64,000 nucleotides of DNA from an uncultured Desulfobacterales bacterium (GTDB lineage: Bacteria; Desulfobacterota; Desulfobacteria; Desulfobacterales; CAJINA01): positions 25,831 through 89,830 of the forward strand of contig CAZYGG010000006.1 in assembly GCA_964647585.1 (NCBI GenBank), read 5' to 3'. The position numbers and the translations under genes were made by a program. Of this stretch, positions 36,348 through 42,823 are shown piece after piece. The first letter of the stretch is position 1, and every line of letters starts with the position of its first letter. The notes under the pieces were generated by a model. The model ran no database searches. It worked only from the letters and a program-made list of their open reading frames with translations, and had not been told where the DNA came from.

Positions 36348-37035
36348 ACCCCAGCGGATCTCAGATCAAGTCTTTGAACAGCTCAGGGAACTTATCTTCA
36401 GAGGTGAATTAAAACCCGGCGAAAAAATGATGCCGGAAAGAGAATTGGCCACGGCCCTGGACGTCAGCCGGACAACCGTGAGAGACGCGACCAATAAGCT
36501 GGTCGCCATGGGTTTGATCGAACAAAAACAGGGTCAGGGCACGTTTGTAAGCATGCCGGACAACCGGAGCACCAGCTTTCTGGCCCAAGCCATGAAGTCG
36601 CAAAATGCCACCCTGGAAGACCTGTTGGAAGTCCGCATGGGACTTGAGTGCAACACGGCGGCGCTGGCCGCCAGACGGGCTACTGAGAAAGACCTGCAGA
36701 TCATGCGGGCGCATATCGATGCAATGGATTCGGCTGTCAGCGCCGGGGGGCTGGGCTCCCAGGCCGATGTTGCCTTCCATATGTCCATTACGTATGCTTC
36801 CAAAAACCCTGTCCAGGTTTTCGTGATGAAGCGCTTTTATGATTTTCTGTTTCTGGGGATTAAAGAGAACCTGCAACGCCTGTATGAAAAACCGGAAAAC
36901 ATTGAATCGATTATGGCCCAGCATAAAAAGATCTTCGAAGCAATAAAATCAAGAAATCCGGAAAATGCGTTTGACGCCATGCAGTATCACATTCGATTCG
37001 TCATGGACTTTTTTCGAAATCGCAGCACCGCCTGA
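36322..37035 (+). CDS. GntR-family transcriptional regulator, FadR (FCD) subfamily; LldR/PdhR-like
   Basis: It has the winged-helix ERELATALDVSRTTVRDATNKLVAMGLI and an FCD-type helical C-terminus. Confidence 0.9.
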   Translation: MTVRLKPIKPQRISDQVFEQLRELIFRGELKPGEKMMPERELATALDVSRTTVRDATNKLVAMGLIEQKQGQGTFVSMPDNRSTSFLAQAMKSQNATLEDLLEVRMGLECNTAALAARRATEKDLQIMRAHIDAMDSAVSAGGLGSQADVAFHMSITYASKNPVQVFVMKRFYDFLFLGIKENLQRLYEKPENIESIMAQHKKIFEAIKSRNPENAFDAMQYHIRFVMDFFRNRSTA

Positions 37036-37075
37036 TATTAACCCCGCAAAAAAACAACCCGCGCAGCAGCCCGGC

Positions 37076-37366
37076 ATGGCTTCTTTTCGCATACCCGCTG
37101 ATGAAATTTCCAGGCGCATATCCACTTTTCAAAAATACCTGCGTACCCAGAAGCTGACCGCAGCCCTGCTTGTTCAGCGCATCGATCTGCTCTATTTCTC
37201 GGGTACGGCCCAGTCCGGCTGCCTCTATATTCCTGCCAGGGGAGAGCCCGATCTGTTCGTTAAGCGCTATCTGCCGCGGGCGGCGGCGGAATCGCCTGGA
37301 CTACCCATATTCCCCGGCCAGCGGCTCGGGGACCGCGGTGGCGTTTCCCTGCGGGGCCGGGCATAA
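37076..37366 (+). pseudogene. Remnant of an M24 Xaa-Pro aminopeptidase/creatinase-N-domain protein (N-terminal ~95 codons only)
   Basis: MASFRIPADEISRRISTFQKYLRTQKLTAALLVQRIDLLYFSGTAQSG... is the typical creatinase/prolidase N-terminal domain. The ORF stops after 96 aa and no catalytic domain follows. Confidence 0.45.
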
Positions 37367-37706: not shown

Positions 37707-38117
37707 CTATATTTCCTTGAAAACCTTGGCGAGCGATTCCCCCGCCACGTGGATTTTCCATTCATTGAGGTAGCCGAACGGGGTTGTCTCAACGGTATAA
37801 CCGGTATTTTCCAGGCGGTCGATCACTTCCGCGACCAGTTCAGCGGTGAATTCCGGGGGCGCCTTGCTGGTGGAGAGATGGCCGAAGGAGTGCAGTACCA
37901 CGGTTTTGGTGCCGAACTTACCCGCCAGCCACTTGATGTTTTTTAGAGCCTTGGTCAGTACCTTCTTGCGGCGTTCCACATCCTCGGCCTCGCCGTGGTA
38001 AAAAACGATCACTGCATTTACCACCTCTTTTTCATCATGGTAGTCGGGGACATCTGCAAGGGTCTTTTCAAACGGTTTGAACCAGAAGGAGGGAGCGTAG
38101 AACATTAAGAGCTTCAA
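37707..38117 (-). CDS. Free-standing archaeal-type threonyl-tRNA synthetase editing domain (tRNA-Thr_ED / DTD-like fold) homolog
   Basis: 136 aa. MKLLMFYAPSFWFKP..., VVLHSFGHLSTSKAPPEF and TPFGYLNEWKIHVAG align with my recollection of the Pyrococcus ThrRS N-terminal editing domain (LLIHSDYIEYEV, VFVYPFAHLSS, APFGYYKAFKISCKG). TTG start with a GAGG RBS. Confidence 0.6.
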   Translation of the reverse strand: MKLLMFYAPSFWFKPFEKTLADVPDYHDEKEVVNAVIVFYHGEAEDVERRKKVLTKALKNIKWLAGKFGTKTVVLHSFGHLSTSKAPPEFTAELVAEVIDRLENTGYTVETTPFGYLNEWKIHVAGESLAKVFKEI

Positions 38118-38186
38118 GTAGTACCTCGCGAAGGATTTTATGTTGGTTATAGCGTTTTACGAAAAGATGTTCCGCTTGATTGATCC

Positions 38187-38278
38187 TGTCATTCTGAGGA
38201 GTGAAACGACGAAGAATCCCTTTCAATAAAAGATAAGCTTGGCATGAGGGAGACTCTTCGCTCCGCTCAGAGTGACAT
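38187..38278. repeat. Imperfect ~32-bp inverted repeat (TGTCATTCTGAGGAGTGAAACGACGAAGAATCCC ... GGGAGACTCTTCGCTCCGCTCAGAGTGACAT)
   Basis: The arms are at 38187..38220 and 38248..38278 in the gap between the ThrRS-ED-like gene start and the RND gene stop. Confidence 0.5.
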
Positions 38279-38295
38279 ACATGGCTGGACGCTAT

Positions 38296-41200
38296 TTATA
38301 CCGGCTCCTTACGGCTCTTTTCAAAGCCTATGAAAAAGGCCAAAAGCGACGGGATGATGAACAGGGTGAAGACTGTGGACAGGGCCAGGCCCCCCAGGAT
38401 AACGCTGCCCAGGCCCCGGTAGAGTTCGCTGCCGGCTCCCGTGGAGAGCACCAGGGGCAGCATGCCGAACAGGCTGGTGGTGGTGCTCATGAAGATCGGC
38501 CGGATGCGCGTTCTCACCGATTCCAAGACCGCCTCTACACCTACAAAGCCCAGGTAGCGGACATTGTTGAGCGCCTGGTGCACGATCAAAATGGCGTTAT
38601 TCACCACGGTTCCCACCAGGATGATGAATCCCAGCATAGTGACAATGTCCAGAGGCTGGGGCGCGATGAGCCAGTCCACCAGCCGCAGGCCGATCAAGCC
38701 GCCGGCGCCGGCCAGGGGGACGCTGAACATGATGATCAGTGGATAAAAGAAGTTCTCGAACAACGCCGACATGAGCAGGTAGATAATGACGGCCGCCAGG
38801 ATCAGGTTCCACTGGATAGCGGCAATGGCCGAACTGAGTTTGTCGGCATTGCCGCCAACGCTGACGGTCGTGTTGGGCAGTTTACCCGCGCTGCGCAACG
38901 GGTCGACTATGTCGGTAGTAATAGTTTCCAGGGCCGCCTGGAGCGGTATCGAATGCGGCGGGGTAACCTGCAAGGTGATGTTGCGTTTGCGTTCCAGGTG
39001 ATTGATCTGCACCATGCCCTGGCCGTAGGCCAGGTCGGCGACGTCGCGAATCCTGATCAGGCGGCCGTTCCCATTGGCAATCAGGCTGTCGGCAATATCT
39101 TCGGGGGTTTTGATACCGCCGGCACTGCTGCGCAGGACCAGGTCGATTTTCTTCTCCTGTTCCGGCTTGAACTCGCCGATTTTGCGGCCATCCATCAGGA
39201 CATCCACATAGAGGCCGAGATCTTCTTCGGTCATGCCATTGGCAAGCACCCGGCTGCGGTCGGGGATAAAATTCGCTTCAGGGTAGCTGTTTTCTATGGA
39301 CGGTACCGGGCGGACCTGGGCCTCGGGCATTTTTTGGCGCAGGGCCCCGAAGAGGGTGCGGGAGGCATTGATGATTGCGTCGATTTCATCGCCGGCGATG
39401 TTGACTTCCACAGTGCGACCGCGTCCCAGGCCGGTCTGGAAAATACCGGCCTGGATACTGACGCCGAAGACACCGGGGATACTGTTCATCACCCGGTTGA
39501 GCATGGGCATCATCCGGGGGGCTTCGGTTTCATGCTTACCGATAGCCCCGAAAAGAGAAATCCGGTCGGCCGAAACATAGAAAATATTCTTGATTTGCGG
39601 GACGCCGTCTTTACCATCTTCTTTGAAGTAGGGGCGGGTTGCCTTGAAGATATGGTGCCCGATGGCTTCGCGTTTGGCCAGCGAATAACCCGGTGGTGGA
39701 ATCATGATATTCAGTATCAGGTTGCGGTTGCCCTGGGGCAGGTACTCGGCCTTGGGCATCAGGGTTGCCACGGTGATAACGGCTGCCCCGGTGAGAACCG
39801 TCACCGTTATGATGCGGGTGTACCACCGGCTGATGGACAAGGCTGAAAGTGCGAACAGCCCCCGCGACAGCAGTGTGCCGAAGCGCCCGACCAGGCCATT
39901 TTTCTTTTTTTTCTTCTTTCCGGCCAGCCGGTAGAACTGGTTGGTGATGCTGGGAATGGCGCTCACCGATACAATCAGGCTGATCATGATAGCGAAAGTG
40001 ATGGCAATGGCGATGTCCTTAAAAAGCTGGCCGGCTTCTTCTTCGATGAAGATAACCGGCAGAAACACAGCCACGGTCGTGGCCGTGGAGGCGAAGACCG
40101 CGCCCCAGACCTCCCTGGCACCATCATAGGAAGCTTCAAAAGGCCCTTTACCCATCTGGCGATGACGGTCGATGTTTTCTAATACGACGATGGCGTTGTC
40201 CACCAGCATGCCCACCGCGAAAGAGATCCCGGCCAGGCTGACCACATTCAGGCTGCGCCCCATTCCCCACATGAAGATGAACGTGCCGATGATCGAAATA
40301 GGGATAGCCACTGCCGTGGTTAGCGTTGAGCTGATGCTGCGTAAAAAGATGAACAGGACTGTCAGGGCCAGCAGGCCGCCGATGACCACGTTGCGTTTCA
40401 CCAGGCCGATGGCATTGTTGATATAGGGTGTCTGTTCATATACAATTTTGATGTGCAGGTTTTGGGCTTTGAGTATATCGCGGTTGACATACTCAATCGC
40501 GGCTTTCATACGGCGGGTCAACTCGATGACGTTGGCACCCTGTTCCTTGCGGACGCCTATAACGATGACCGGCGTATCGTTATGCATGACGGACACATCG
40601 TTGACGGCATAGCCGATACGGGTGTCGGCGATCTGCTCCAGGCGCACCCGGTGGATCCCATCATCGGCCATGAGGATATCCAGCGGATCACCGGTTTTTT
40701 GGAACTGCCCGGTGGTGCGAATGCGGTAGTTTTTCTTGGCCAGCCCCAGGACCCCCGCGGAAACGTTAACATTGGCGGTTTGCAGCCGGTCGACCACCTG
40801 GCCGATGGATAAATTGTAGTGTCCCAGTCGCTCGGGATCGATGACGACCTCAAGCTGGCGGGCCGATCCGCCGAAAACAAAAAGACTGCCGACACCCGGC
40901 ACCCGGTCAATATGCTGTCGGACATCATTCTCGAAAAAGGTCCTGAAGGTGTTGATTCTGGCAGGGTCCCCTGAATCGGTTTTCATGACCATCCAGATGA
41001 CGGGACTGCTTTGGGCGCCGGAAGCTTCAATAACCGGTTTCTGGACATTTTCCGGGTACTGGCGCACCTCATTGAGTTTGTTGGAAACCGCCAGGAGGGC
41101 TGCATCCAGATCGGTGCCGACCTCAAAGGTCAGGGTCACTTCCGCCCGGCTGTTATAGCTCGAGCTCTCCATCAGGGTGAGTCGCTGAATACCCTTGAGA

Positions 41201-41409
41201 ACGCCTTCCTGTTCTTCGACGATATCTTTTTCAACTTCATAGGGGGTGGCCCCCGGCCAGATTGTATTCACTGTAATCTGGGGCCGTTCAACATCAGGCG
41301 TGAGCTGGACCGACAGTCGGTTGATGCCGATCAGGCCGAACAGGAGAAGCAGGATAATGCCCACGGCCACGGAGACGGGCTTATTGATGGCGAATTTGAT
41401 GAAGTTCAT
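38296..41409 (-). CDS. RND efflux transporter, inner-membrane permease (AcrB/HAE family)
   Basis: 1037 aa with the N-terminus MNFIKFAINKPVSVAVGIILLLLFG, 12 TM segments and two large periplasmic loops. Confidence 0.95.
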   Translation of the reverse strand: MNFIKFAINKPVSVAVGIILLLLFGLIGINRLSVQLTPDVERPQITVNTIWPGATPYEVEKDIVEEQEGVLKGIQRLTLMESSSYNSRAEVTLTFEVGTDLDAALLAVSNKLNEVRQYPENVQKPVIEASGAQSSPVIWMVMKTDSGDPARINTFRTFFENDVRQHIDRVPGVGSLFVFGGSARQLEVVIDPERLGHYNLSIGQVVDRLQTANVNVSAGVLGLAKKNYRIRTTGQFQKTGDPLDILMADDGIHRVRLEQIADTRIGYAVNDVSVMHNDTPVIVIGVRKEQGANVIELTRRMKAAIEYVNRDILKAQNLHIKIVYEQTPYINNAIGLVKRNVVIGGLLALTVLFIFLRSISSTLTTAVAIPISIIGTFIFMWGMGRSLNVVSLAGISFAVGMLVDNAIVVLENIDRHRQMGKGPFEASYDGAREVWGAVFASTATTVAVFLPVIFIEEEAGQLFKDIAIAITFAIMISLIVSVSAIPSITNQFYRLAGKKKKKKNGLVGRFGTLLSRGLFALSALSISRWYTRIITVTVLTGAAVITVATLMPKAEYLPQGNRNLILNIMIPPPGYSLAKREAIGHHIFKATRPYFKEDGKDGVPQIKNIFYVSADRISLFGAIGKHETEAPRMMPMLNRVMNSIPGVFGVSIQAGIFQTGLGRGRTVEVNIAGDEIDAIINASRTLFGALRQKMPEAQVRPVPSIENSYPEANFIPDRSRVLANGMTEEDLGLYVDVLMDGRKIGEFKPEQEKKIDLVLRSSAGGIKTPEDIADSLIANGNGRLIRIRDVADLAYGQGMVQINHLERKRNITLQVTPPHSIPLQAALETITTDIVDPLRSAGKLPNTTVSVGGNADKLSSAIAAIQWNLILAAVIIYLLMSALFENFFYPLIIMFSVPLAGAGGLIGLRLVDWLIAPQPLDIVTMLGFIILVGTVVNNAILIVHQALNNVRYLGFVGVEAVLESVRTRIRPIFMSTTTSLFGMLPLVLSTGAGSELYRGLGSVILGGLALSTVFTLFIIPSLLAFFIGFEKSRKEPV

Positions 41410-41666: not shown

Positions 41667-42713
41667 TTACTCCGTCTTCACAACCGTCACGGCCTGGTCC
41701 GGCCGCAGGCGCTCATTTCCATCCACGACGATGGGCATGCCCGGAACGATATACGGGTTATCGACGCCCAGGTATTCGCCGTCTACGGCAACAATATTGA
41801 TCGGCAGAATATTAGCCTTACCCTCTTTCACCGTGTAGACAAATTCCTTGCCCTGGTGACGGACCAGCGCGTCCCTCGGGACCATTTTCAAATTGGTCTT
41901 TGCGCTGACCGGGACATCTGCCCGGGCCGACATATTCTGGATGACCCCCTTGAAATAGGGAATCGCGATGCTGATTTTGAAAGTTTTCGATTTGGGATCC
42001 GCCACGGGGATGCGGTTGGTCAGTCTGCCGGTCAATTGCCGGGCCAGGGGCGTCAGGGTGAGCGAGAGTTCCAGGCCGGGCTGGACAAACGCAGCCAGTT
42101 TTTCGTCCACGGCGACCCGGACCACCAGGTCATTGATGGACCCCAGTAGGCAGACCGCTACGCCCGGGGAAATCCACTCCCCCTGGGATTTGTATTTCGC
42201 CAGAACCAACCCGTCGAAGGGTGCGCGCAGGGTGCTTTTGGCCAGTTCCAGTTCTTTTTTAGCCAGTTTGACGCGCAGGCTTTCCCGCTGGGTAAAAAGC
42301 TCCTGGAGGCTGAAGCCAAGGTCGTCAAATTCTTTTTCCGTGGCGATATTATCACTACGCAGGGTTTTGAGGCGCTGCAGGTTCTTTTCAGTTTTCTGTA
42401 TCGTGATATTTTTTTGAGCGATTTCCTGGTTGATAATGGCGATGTCCTTGCGCAGGAAATCGGTGTTCAGTTGCACCAGGACCGCCCCTTTCTTGACCAC
42501 AACCCCTTCCTCGATGGATTGACTGGCGATCAGTCCGCTGATTTCAGGTGAGAGACCGGCCGTCTTATTAAAATCGACAACCCCCACCATGGGGCGGGTC
42601 GGGGCCAACTCCTTGGCGAATACTTTCGTAGTGACCACTTTGGCGGGCGGCTGCTGGGCAAATGCGGACCCGCAAAACAGGACCGTTAACAACAGGCTGG
42701 CGAGTATTCTCAT
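41667..42713 (-). CDS. RND efflux periplasmic adaptor (membrane fusion protein, HlyD_D23 type)
   Basis: It has a signal peptide (MRILASLLLTVLFCGSAFA), a coiled-coil hairpin region and beta-barrel C-terminal domains. I chose the start at 42713 (AAGG RBS); the tracked ORF begins at 42785. Confidence 0.85.
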   Translation of the reverse strand: MRILASLLLTVLFCGSAFAQQPPAKVVTTKVFAKELAPTRPMVGVVDFNKTAGLSPEISGLIASQSIEEGVVVKKGAVLVQLNTDFLRKDIAIINQEIAQKNITIQKTEKNLQRLKTLRSDNIATEKEFDDLGFSLQELFTQRESLRVKLAKKELELAKSTLRAPFDGLVLAKYKSQGEWISPGVAVCLLGSINDLVVRVAVDEKLAAFVQPGLELSLTLTPLARQLTGRLTNRIPVADPKSKTFKISIAIPYFKGVIQNMSARADVPVSAKTNLKMVPRDALVRHQGKEFVYTVKEGKANILPINIVAVDGEYLGVDNPYIVPGMPIVVDGNERLRPDQAVTVVKTE

Positions 42714-42823
42714 AATCAGACCTTTCAATACAAGTGCTCTTAAGGCAACGATACAGGAATATTGTAGCAGGTAGCGTTTACCCATTTGAGTATCATCAAA
42801 TTGAAAATATTTAAAGGGGGTTC

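Follow-up and report, generated by a model that had tools for sequence, protein, structure and literature searches.

A stand-alone ThrRS-type editing domain with an altered pocket in a Desulfobacterales bacterium

Results

A small gene at the end of a minus-strand run

The window, by which we mean the whole stretch of 64,000 nucleotides that was analysed, comes from an uncultured Desulfobacterales bacterium. On its minus strand, at 37707..38117, an open reading frame of 136 aa with a TTG start encodes a stand-alone tRNA-Thr_ED protein of the DTD-like fold (hereafter ED). Reading of the sequence places a Shine-Dalgarno motif, GAGG, at 38124..38127 on the same strand, 6 nt upstream of the TTG start codon (38115-38117), and a congener carries GAGGTGG at the equivalent place. 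An ATG lies four codons downstream. The TTG is the preferred start since the homologues align beginning at residue 1 (MKLLMF). Simple searches for promoters and terminators near the gene gave no matches.

The ED gene closes a minus-strand run composed of a Mut7-C gene, the HlyD-type membrane-fusion (MFP) adaptor of a pump operon (41667..42785, minus strand; PF13437 and PF16576), an AcrB-type RND efflux transporter (38296..41409, minus strand; PF00873, E 9e-196) and ED itself, for which the transporter gene is the co-oriented upstream neighbour. The 178 bp spacer between the RND and ED genes (38118..38295, assigned to neither strand) is taken up by a dispersed repeat, about 130 bp long, that contains an inverted repeat. 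This element has 46 matches of 71-100% identity across its own genome, and it is absent from the RND-ED junction of a congener. In this congener (G002), an RND orthologue of 93% identity is found directly upstream of ED, the order Mut7-C, MFP, RND, ED is repeated, and the TGA stop of the RND gene overlaps the TTG start of ED. Locus L124 (P0015) is from the same genome as G002 and does not count as independent support for this junction. In another congener (G001), the RND orthologue is 85% identical and has no ED gene downstream.

The first-pass annotation had remarked on the neighbouring RND pump. We find that the linkage is confined to the genus and is absent from one of three congeners. Next to ED, a pump is found in none of 50 other loci, the sole RND-like gene being about 5 kb off in locus L016. 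One way to read the local arrangement is that ED hydrolyses an adenosine ester or amide that is not a tRNA, for example a small aminoacyl-nucleoside toxin or antibiotic, and that it forms a detoxification module with the pump in this genus. The overlapping genes of G002 and the shared gene order speak for this reading, as do the rebuilt pocket described below and the ligand unit of the fold, which is an aminoacyl-adenosine (PMC4491819). Nonetheless, the linkage is missing from G001 despite its closely related RND gene, a mobile repeat interrupts it in the window, the other loci have no adjoining pump and a basic helix of ED points to a nucleic-acid partner. We consider a small-molecule hydrolase rather improbable, and the RND pump was rejected as a functional partner.

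Outside the genus, clustering of the ORFs around 50 bacterial ED loci found no conserved operon partner. The neighbours are lineage-specific only and often lie on the opposite strand. For example, PilZ, multihaem cytochrome and TPR-AhpC genes are found in Nitrospirota, Usp in Desulfacinum, LysM in Anaerolineae and Mfd in Desulfohalobiaceae. Redox or stress genes (AhpC-TPR, Usp, hemerythrin) are near ED in some lineages, mostly on the opposite strand.

In three Desulfohalobiaceae/Desulfovibrionales loci, a FemAB_like gene (PF04339) is directly upstream of ED and overlaps its start. Fem-type enzymes use aminoacyl-tRNA. As a partner of ED, FemAB_like was rejected: the two do not co-occur in the order, where FemAB_like is present in 4 of 13 ED-positive and 9 of 28 ED-negative genomes. 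A 181-aa ORF overlapping the ED start in loci L126-L128 matches no Pfam family. We also looked for informative domain fusions. The first search returned nothing and the second only four singleton long forms in which ED is part of a longer protein, and these may be gene-calling run-ons.

The ED gene resembles a small accessory of the housekeeping type, one frequently appended to the ends of unrelated operons. In the loci searched, neither a conserved neighbour nor a fusion nor a co-occurring gene hints at a particular substrate.

The protein is a genuine member of PF08915

The first-pass annotation had described a free-standing archaeal ThrRS editing domain in a bacterium and had proposed a comparison with the Pfam profile PF08915 (tRNA-Thr_ED). 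The match is significant and full-length, covering positions 1-137 of 137 (E 3.2e-42) with a score of 144.3 bits against a gathering cut-off of 30.2 bits; in the genome search the score is 140.8 bits. The closest solved structures by sequence are the ThrRS editing domains of P. abyssi, M. jannaschii and A. pernix (E 9e-10 to 1e-5). The NCBIfam models for archaeal ThrRS and Ser-tRNA(Thr) hydrolase are matched over their N-terminal 130-140 positions only and far under their cut-offs. For example, the Ser-tRNA(Thr) hydrolase model is matched at positions 1-131 of 387 with 37 bits, compared to a cut-off of 362 bits. The window protein is a genuine PF08915 member.

An AlphaFold (AF2) model built on 55 homologues has a mean pLDDT of 91.3. 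In Foldseek, the top matches of this predicted structure are all ThrRS editing domains (TM 0.84-0.93), led by that of P. abyssi with TM 0.93 and an rmsd of 1.7 A, followed by DTD at a TM of about 0.6. The DTD-like fold and the archaeal kinship named in the first-pass annotation are borne out by these matches, and the host, as described below, has a ThrRS of the bacterial type.

The gene is under purifying selection, with a dN/dS of 0.067 against the congener copy. Taken together, the profile match, the modelled fold and the low dN/dS show that the gene is real and under selection, and that its product is a free-standing domain with the archaeal ThrRS editing (DTD-like) fold.

The protein is predicted to form a homodimer. 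A two-copy model scores 0.83 (best control 0.00), on a scale whose mark is reached by 20 of 30 solved one-chain pairs and by 1 of 23 single chains; since similar NTD and DTD dimers have already been solved, this score may reflect memory. The runs agree in 100% of contacts and the partner pLDDT is at least 92. The modelled interface is made of residues 78-83, 117-128 and 131-133, and K131 touches residue 78 of the partner, that is, the HSFxH motif of the other subunit, as Glu134 does in the archaeal ThrRS NTD. The model thus resembles NTD and DTD dimers, a likeness that is not independent proof of the dimer.

These data bear on the possibility that ED is a second D-aminoacyl-tRNA or Gly-tRNA(Ala) deacylase, a functional analogue of DTD. 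Like DTD (PF02580) and its animal paralogue ATD, ED is free-standing, dimeric in the model and of the common superfold, and its presumed target is the acylated 3' end of tRNA. But PF02580 gives no match to the window protein even at E 10 or below, and the TM to DTD is only about 0.6. A cross-subunit Gly-cisPro motif defines the chiral selection of DTD (PMC5802732); ED has a loop Gly-Glu-Ser in its place. A canonical DTD is already encoded in the same genome (E 1e-60; G000:C1:77392-77820). We find a DTD analogue very unlikely.

The host has its own threonyl and D-aminoacyl proofreading

The host genome (4.15 Mb, 95% complete) contains one PF08915 gene. Its single ThrRS is of the bacterial type, 659 aa long, with TGS, tRNA_SAD, class II core and anticodon domains. 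Both motifs of the N2 editing site are present, HSTAH at residue 93 (HxxxH) and CRGPH at residue 197 (CxxxH). The first-pass annotation had asked whether the N2 domain is missing from this ThrRS; the bacterial site is there.

An analogy, made in the same annotation, with crenarchaeal trans-editing proteins also fails. ThrRS-ed, or Ser-tRNA(Thr) hydrolase, of S. solfataricus and ThrRS-2 of A. pernix (4RR6) are, like ED, free-standing proteins with the ThrRS editing fold. Unlike ED, they have retained both an anticodon-binding domain and an active site of the ThrRS type, and they serve genomes whose catalytic ThrRS is without editing. The window protein has no anticodon-binding domain, its pocket is changed and the editing site of the host ThrRS is intact.

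A link to SepRS/SepCysS was considered for the stand-alone short branch to which ED belongs, and was rejected: SepRS (TIGR00470) is over its cut-off in none of 41 genomes of the order (the host and 40 relatives). The weak TIGR00470 matches in the order are proteins of about 340 aa, the size of PheRS-alpha.

The presence of both an N2-equipped ThrRS and a DTD in the host, along with archaea that keep an ED copy beside an editing-competent ThrRS (see below), argues for a non-redundant job of the ED gene.

Stand-alone forms are widespread, and the short form is a deep sister clade of the ThrRS domains

While the first-pass annotation saw a stand-alone bacterial copy as unusual, the gene is far from rare. 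We found more than 1,100 clusters of ED relatives at 90% identity, ranging from 74 to 238 aa, and many of them are named 'threonyl-tRNA synthetase editing domain-containing protein' at NCBI, in Thermodesulfobacteriota, Nitrospirota and others. PF08915 matches are present in 13 of 41 genomes of the same order and in 35 of 301 genomes of the same phylum (28 of the 260 high-quality ones), concentrated in few families. A scan of species-representative genomes returned 50 ED loci, including cultured Desulfacinum strains, Thermodesulfovibrionia, Anaerolineae, KSB1, Bacteroidota and the archaeon Methanohalobium. The family has also been described before: Mukai et al. 2017 (mBio 8:e00561-17, PMC5424206; Text S1, Fig. 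S4, Data Set S1) gave the name 'tRNA-Thr-ED' to stand-alone homologues of the archaeal ThrRS editing domain and reported them to be widely distributed among prokaryotes.

In Halobacteriota, 74 of 81 genomes have the ThrRS-fused domain and about 26 of them also have a free-standing copy. Methanohalobium and these roughly 26 of 81 Halobacteriota carry the stand-alone form beside an editing-competent ThrRS.

The family alignment comprises 105 domains, of which 54 are bacterial stand-alone forms and 30 are fused to ThrRS; the rest are archaeal stand-alone forms, 8 of them short and 13 long. The maximum-likelihood tree, which is unrooted, has one dominant split with an SH-aLRT of 100 and a combined length of about 2.4 changes per site. 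On the first side, the ThrRS-fused domains are joined by the long stand-alone forms of archaea, which carry a C-terminal CPY..CD..CPYC tail and correspond to the SepCysS-associated group of Mukai et al. The second side holds the bacterial stand-alone forms and, of the eight short archaeal forms, all but L102, which has a ThrRS-like pocket and groups with the fused domains. Within the second side of this unrooted tree, a branch with SH-aLRT 83 sets the bacteria apart, which makes the bacterial clade sister to the short stand-alone archaeal clade. As judged from this tree, the stand-alone short form is a deep sister clade of the ThrRS domains. Acquisition from archaea, as suggested in the first-pass annotation, is one of the directions of transfer with which an unrooted tree is compatible.

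Nitrospirota sequences nest among those of Thermodesulfobacteriota, and one KSB1 copy is nearly identical to one Bacteroidota copy. Together with the patchy, phylum-crossing distribution, this result is consistent with lateral spread of the gene. As a separate observation, the ED copy of a genome of the same order (G036) is identical to the copy in a Desulfobacterales MAG.

The pocket is altered throughout the stand-alone short branch

Next, we compared the pockets of 61 stand-alone short sequences and the 30 fused domains, using the numbering of the P. abyssi NTD (PabNTD) and reading the geometry of the active site from the alignment. In this domain, seven side chains lie within 6 A of the scissile bond, namely Pro80, Phe81, Ala82, His83, Tyr120, Lys121 and Glu134 of the partner subunit (Ahmad et al. 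2015, PMC4491819). The same study found that H83A inactivates PabNTD and that K121M severely compromises three NTDs, the Lys positioning the catalytic water. Glu134 holds the alpha-amino group in the archaeal NTD, and residues 117-120 make the RNA-protein interface with A76, where the PFGY segment lies (PMC4491819).

The window protein contains the motifs H76-S-F-G-H80-L, P113-F-G-Y-L-N118 and G126-E-S-L-A-K131 in its own numbering. The motif pairs quoted in the first-pass annotation (SFGHLS with PFAHLS, PFGYLNEWKI with PFGYYKAFKI) are real in the alignment. The accompanying claim that these blocks carry the catalytic residues does not hold: Pro80 is replaced by Ser, Tyr120 by Leu, Lys121 by Asn and Glu134 by Lys. 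At the seven positions (80, 81, 82, 83, 120, 121 and 134) the window protein has S, F, G, H, L, N and K, while the 30 fused domains have P, Y/F, A, H, Y, K and E in 100% of cases. Five of the seven side chains (Pro80, Ala82, Tyr120, Lys121 and Glu134) hence differ in the window protein; four of these differ in every stand-alone short member and Ala82 is variable.

Position by position, the invariant Tyr79 and Pro80 of the fused domains are His and Ser in 100% of the stand-alone short sequences. Position 81, Tyr in 30 of 30 fused domains (Phe in PabNTD), is Phe; the invariant Ala82 becomes Asn, Gly, Thr or Ala; and His83 is His in 100% of both groups. The invariant Tyr120 is replaced by Leu or Phe, and the invariant Lys121 by Asn, Ser, Cys or Leu, never Lys. 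Gly129-His130-Pro131 of the fused domains reads Gly-Glu/Asp-Ser in most stand-alone short sequences, with Ser at position 131 in 54 of 61; one subclade (order_clade2) retains His130 and Pro131. Finally, the invariant Glu134 is reversed to Lys or Arg in 100% of the stand-alone short sequences.

Other parts of the site are kept. His83, Leu84, Gly118, Gly129, Glu46 and Asp49 are retained in 61 of 61 stand-alone short sequences, as is the PFGY adenosine segment in the group, with position 117 being Phe in 54 of 61 and Tyr in 7 of one subclade. In window numbering, H76, S77, F78, H80, L81, G115 and G126 are invariant in 55 sequences. Because the same pocket changes recur throughout the branch, across phyla and across domains, this pattern indicates a conserved but different function rather than decay.

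A further difference lies outside the pocket. Segment 52-71, the second half of the long helix, has a net charge of +5 in the stand-alone short forms compared to -1 in the ThrRS-fused forms, and K59, N60, K62, W63 and K67 are invariant in the bacterial sequences. We infer that this basic helix is a putative tRNA-binding patch that offsets the absent anticodon-binding domain.

Compared with the archaeal ThrRS NTDs of P. abyssi (1Y2Q, 2HL1) and M. jannaschii (4RRF), then, the window protein belongs to the same family PF08915, has the same fold (TM 0.93) and is predicted to use the same dimer interface. It keeps His83, Phe81, Leu84, the PFG segment, Gly129, Glu46 and Asp49. It differs in that it is not fused to a synthetase, is only 23-27% identical and lies across a long, fully supported branch, in addition to the five altered side chains. 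By the measure of the invariant active site, the window protein falls outside the functional class of Ser-tRNA(Thr)-editing NTDs.

Discussion

The common family and fold raise the question whether ED nevertheless acts as a back-up for Ser-tRNA(Thr), or as a general trans-editing factor for Ser-tRNA, for instance when oxidation affects the Cys-dependent N2 site of ThrRS in these anaerobes. His83 and the PFGY segment are kept, and NTD specificity is largely based on main chain and RNA (PMC4491819). Editing by E. coli ThrRS needs C182, a residue that peroxide inactivates (PMC4041444); the window protein has no Cys at all, and AhpC-TPR, Usp and hemerythrin genes are nearby in some lineages. The substitutions at 120 and 134 are in themselves compatible with serine editing, since archaeal NTDs edit Ser-tRNA(Thr), and do so specifically, without needing the side chains of Tyr120 and Glu134 (PMC4491819).

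Against this stand the loss of Lys121 in the whole branch, when K121M alone is so damaging in three NTDs, and the charge reversal of Glu134 in every branch member. Furthermore, the long, supported branch that separates the stand-alone forms from the ThrRS domains indicates a functional shift. Archaea whose ThrRS has a proficient editing domain of the same fold also keep the stand-alone copy, and the stress genes are lineage-specific neighbours, mostly on the opposite strand. We judge a role in serine back-up editing to be unlikely.

The loss of the water-positioning Lys could also be taken to mean that ED is catalytically inactive and binds tRNA or nucleotides in a regulatory or chaperone role, and a functional context was not found among the loci examined. 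However, the pocket residues are strongly conserved across phyla, seven of them being invariant in 55 sequences, and the dN/dS is low. In addition, catalysis by this fold is RNA-assisted and tolerates the loss of side chains (PMC4491819). An inactive binder is the reading to which we give the least credence, and it seems scarcely plausible. As for position 121, the Asn of the window protein is polar and might still position a water.

On balance, we lean towards ED being a homodimeric trans-acting acyl-tRNA deacylase with an RNA-assisted mechanism and a substrate other than Ser-tRNA(Thr). The first-pass annotation had suggested a trans-editing or deacylase factor. A trans-acting deacylase is indeed the most reasonable assignment, while Ser-tRNA(Thr), the substrate of trans-editing, is probably not what this altered pocket accepts.

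In the mechanism that we favour, ED would be a single-domain homodimer of the DTD-like fold, from the 'short' stand-alone branch of PF08915, and would act in trans on a tRNA, binding its acylated 3'-terminal adenosine. Like its archaeal ThrRS relatives, it would hydrolyse the acyl ester by means of the 2'-OH of the tRNA and a bound water. The family-specific basic helix probably gives the affinity for tRNA that the anticodon-binding domain gives to fused forms. In the pocket, a Lys or Arg of the partner subunit stands where a carboxylate of the ThrRS domain holds the alpha-ammonium group of the substrate, the water-positioning Lys is replaced by Asn or Ser, and the cross-subunit Gly-His-Pro loop by Gly-Glu/Asp-Ser.

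The nature of these changes suggests what the substrate may look like. Because the amino-acid pocket is rebuilt alike across the whole branch, the substrate is probably not Ser-tRNA(Thr). The universal reversal of Glu134 to Lys or Arg would favour a neutral or anionic group at the alpha-amino site. The substrate is more likely an acyl-tRNA that is neutral or negative at its alpha substituent or in its side chain; hydroxyacyl-tRNAs and N-blocked or acidic aminoacyl-tRNAs are examples. This agrees with the hydroxyacyl-tRNA idea of Mukai et al., who proposed aminoacyl- or hydroxyacyl-tRNA hydrolysis for these homologues (PMC5424206).

We tentatively extend this view, with less confidence, to the whole branch. 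The stand-alone short forms may constitute a functional class of their own within the DTD-like fold, the fourth after DTD, ATD and the ThrRS NTD. Such a class might clear a non-canonical acyl-tRNA specific to anaerobic bacteria and methanogens, such as a hydroxyacyl-, N-blocked, acidic or phosphorylated aminoacyl-tRNA, whose neutral or anionic group would be read by the partner Lys or Arg.

Trans-acting tRNA proofreading factors define the translation errors that a cell cannot tolerate. A family that occurs frequently among sulfate reducers, Nitrospirota, Anaerolineae and methanogens, that coexists with full ThrRS editing and DTD, and whose pocket is consistently rebuilt, probably marks a new class of mis-acylated tRNA. 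The value of the finding is in this family-level question: the stand-alone family is named in databases and has been discussed earlier, and the window locus itself is ordinary.

Compared with the tRNA-Thr-ED of Mukai et al. 2017, whose account is repeated in a 2022 review from the same group (PMC8762117), nothing essential differs and the window protein is a further member. Mukai et al. noted that the residue equivalent to Glu135 of M. jannaschii is not conserved and that the aminoacyl-adenosine-binding residues are otherwise 'well conserved' (PMC5424206). In the literature searched, no biochemical study of a bacterial stand-alone form was found.

What our comparison adds is the branch-wide replacement of Pro80 by Ser, of Lys121 by Asn or Ser and, in all but one subclade, of GHP by GES, as well as the basic helix. 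The placement of the stand-alone short form as a deep sister clade of the ThrRS domains is a second addition. The SepCysS linkage described by Mukai et al. belongs to a separate ThrRS-like archaeal subgroup, not to the branch of the window protein. These SepCysS-associated proteins of methanogens and MSBL1 have a ThrRS-like pocket, a SepRS/SepCysS link and, in methanogens, a Cys-rich C-terminal tail, which the window protein lacks.

Like the tRNA-Thr-ED proteins, the window protein is a single domain without an anticodon-binding domain, in which the equivalent of M. jannaschii Glu135 is replaced, here by Lys. The likeness extends to individual motifs: two bacterial members of the set of Mukai et al., from Desulfovibrio sp. 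X2 and Thermodesulfatator autotrophicus, carry HSFxHLS, GWLNEW and GESLAKVFK motifs as in the window protein.

Genomic surroundings of the editing-domain gene

Whereas the stop of the RND efflux pump gene and the start of the stand-alone editing-domain (ED) gene overlap in a congener, in the window the two genes are parted by a copy of a dispersed repeat. This copy, about 130 bp long, lies in the spacer at 38118-38295, shortens the C-terminal tail of the pump and has 46 matches at 71-100% identity on the contigs of its own genome. On the other flank, an ORF on the plus strand (36965-37366) converges on the ED gene. It lacks a catalytic domain, and its sole match (PF01321, E 8e-8) is to the N-terminal domain of Creatinase/Prolidase.

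We also found that in G001, a congener with no ED gene, the RND orthologue is followed by a non-coding stretch of around 500 bp, beyond which a 166-aa ORF lies on the opposite strand (L129:446-946).

Upstream genes in other lineages

Fem-type enzymes use aminoacyl-tRNA. At three Desulfohalobiaceae/Desulfovibrionales loci, a FemAB_like gene (PF04339) of about 400 aa is found upstream of the ED gene: directly upstream in L022 (1921-3120) and L033 (2386-3561), and with its end overlapping the ED start by 4 bp in L028 (4802-6004). Across the genomes of the window's order, no co-occurrence of FemAB_like and ED genes was found.

A further overlap is seen at three loci of a lineage in which the ED protein shares 74% identity with that of the window. 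There, the stop of an Ala- and Pro-rich ORF of 181 aa (L126:5459-6004, also in L127 and L128) overlaps the ED start. This ORF matched no Pfam family and may be either a real partner or a spurious call.

Diversity of the editing domain

Within the window's order, we observed a very divergent bacterial subclade of the stand-alone family (L061-L067, branch length 1.5), of which one genome (G038) carries two copies. In the numbering of the P. abyssi ThrRS editing domain, these proteins keep His130-Pro131 and have Arg at position 134, Tyr at 117 and Leu, Asn or His at 121. Judging from these residues, more than one specificity may exist within the stand-alone family.

Archaea have a second stand-alone class, of about 175 aa, found in Halobacteriota (L105-L115, L117 and L120). 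Its members keep the ThrRS-type pocket (P80, K121, GHP), group with ThrRS domains in the tree, and end in a C-terminal CPY-x4-5-CD-x2-CPYC tail which looks like a small zinc ribbon. This class corresponds to the SepCysS-associated proteins described by Mukai et al. 2017.

Finally, PF08915 is also found within larger open frames in the window's bacterial phylum, in two genomes of one genus (G156:C1:1979586-1979993, G156:C1:1775727-1776143 and G194:C242:170-586). Both genomes have it in frames of 655-656 aa, which is the length of an archaeal-type ThrRS that carries its editing domain as a fusion, and G156 has an additional match within a frame of 1157 aa. These frames resemble bacterial instances of archaeal-type synthetase fusions.
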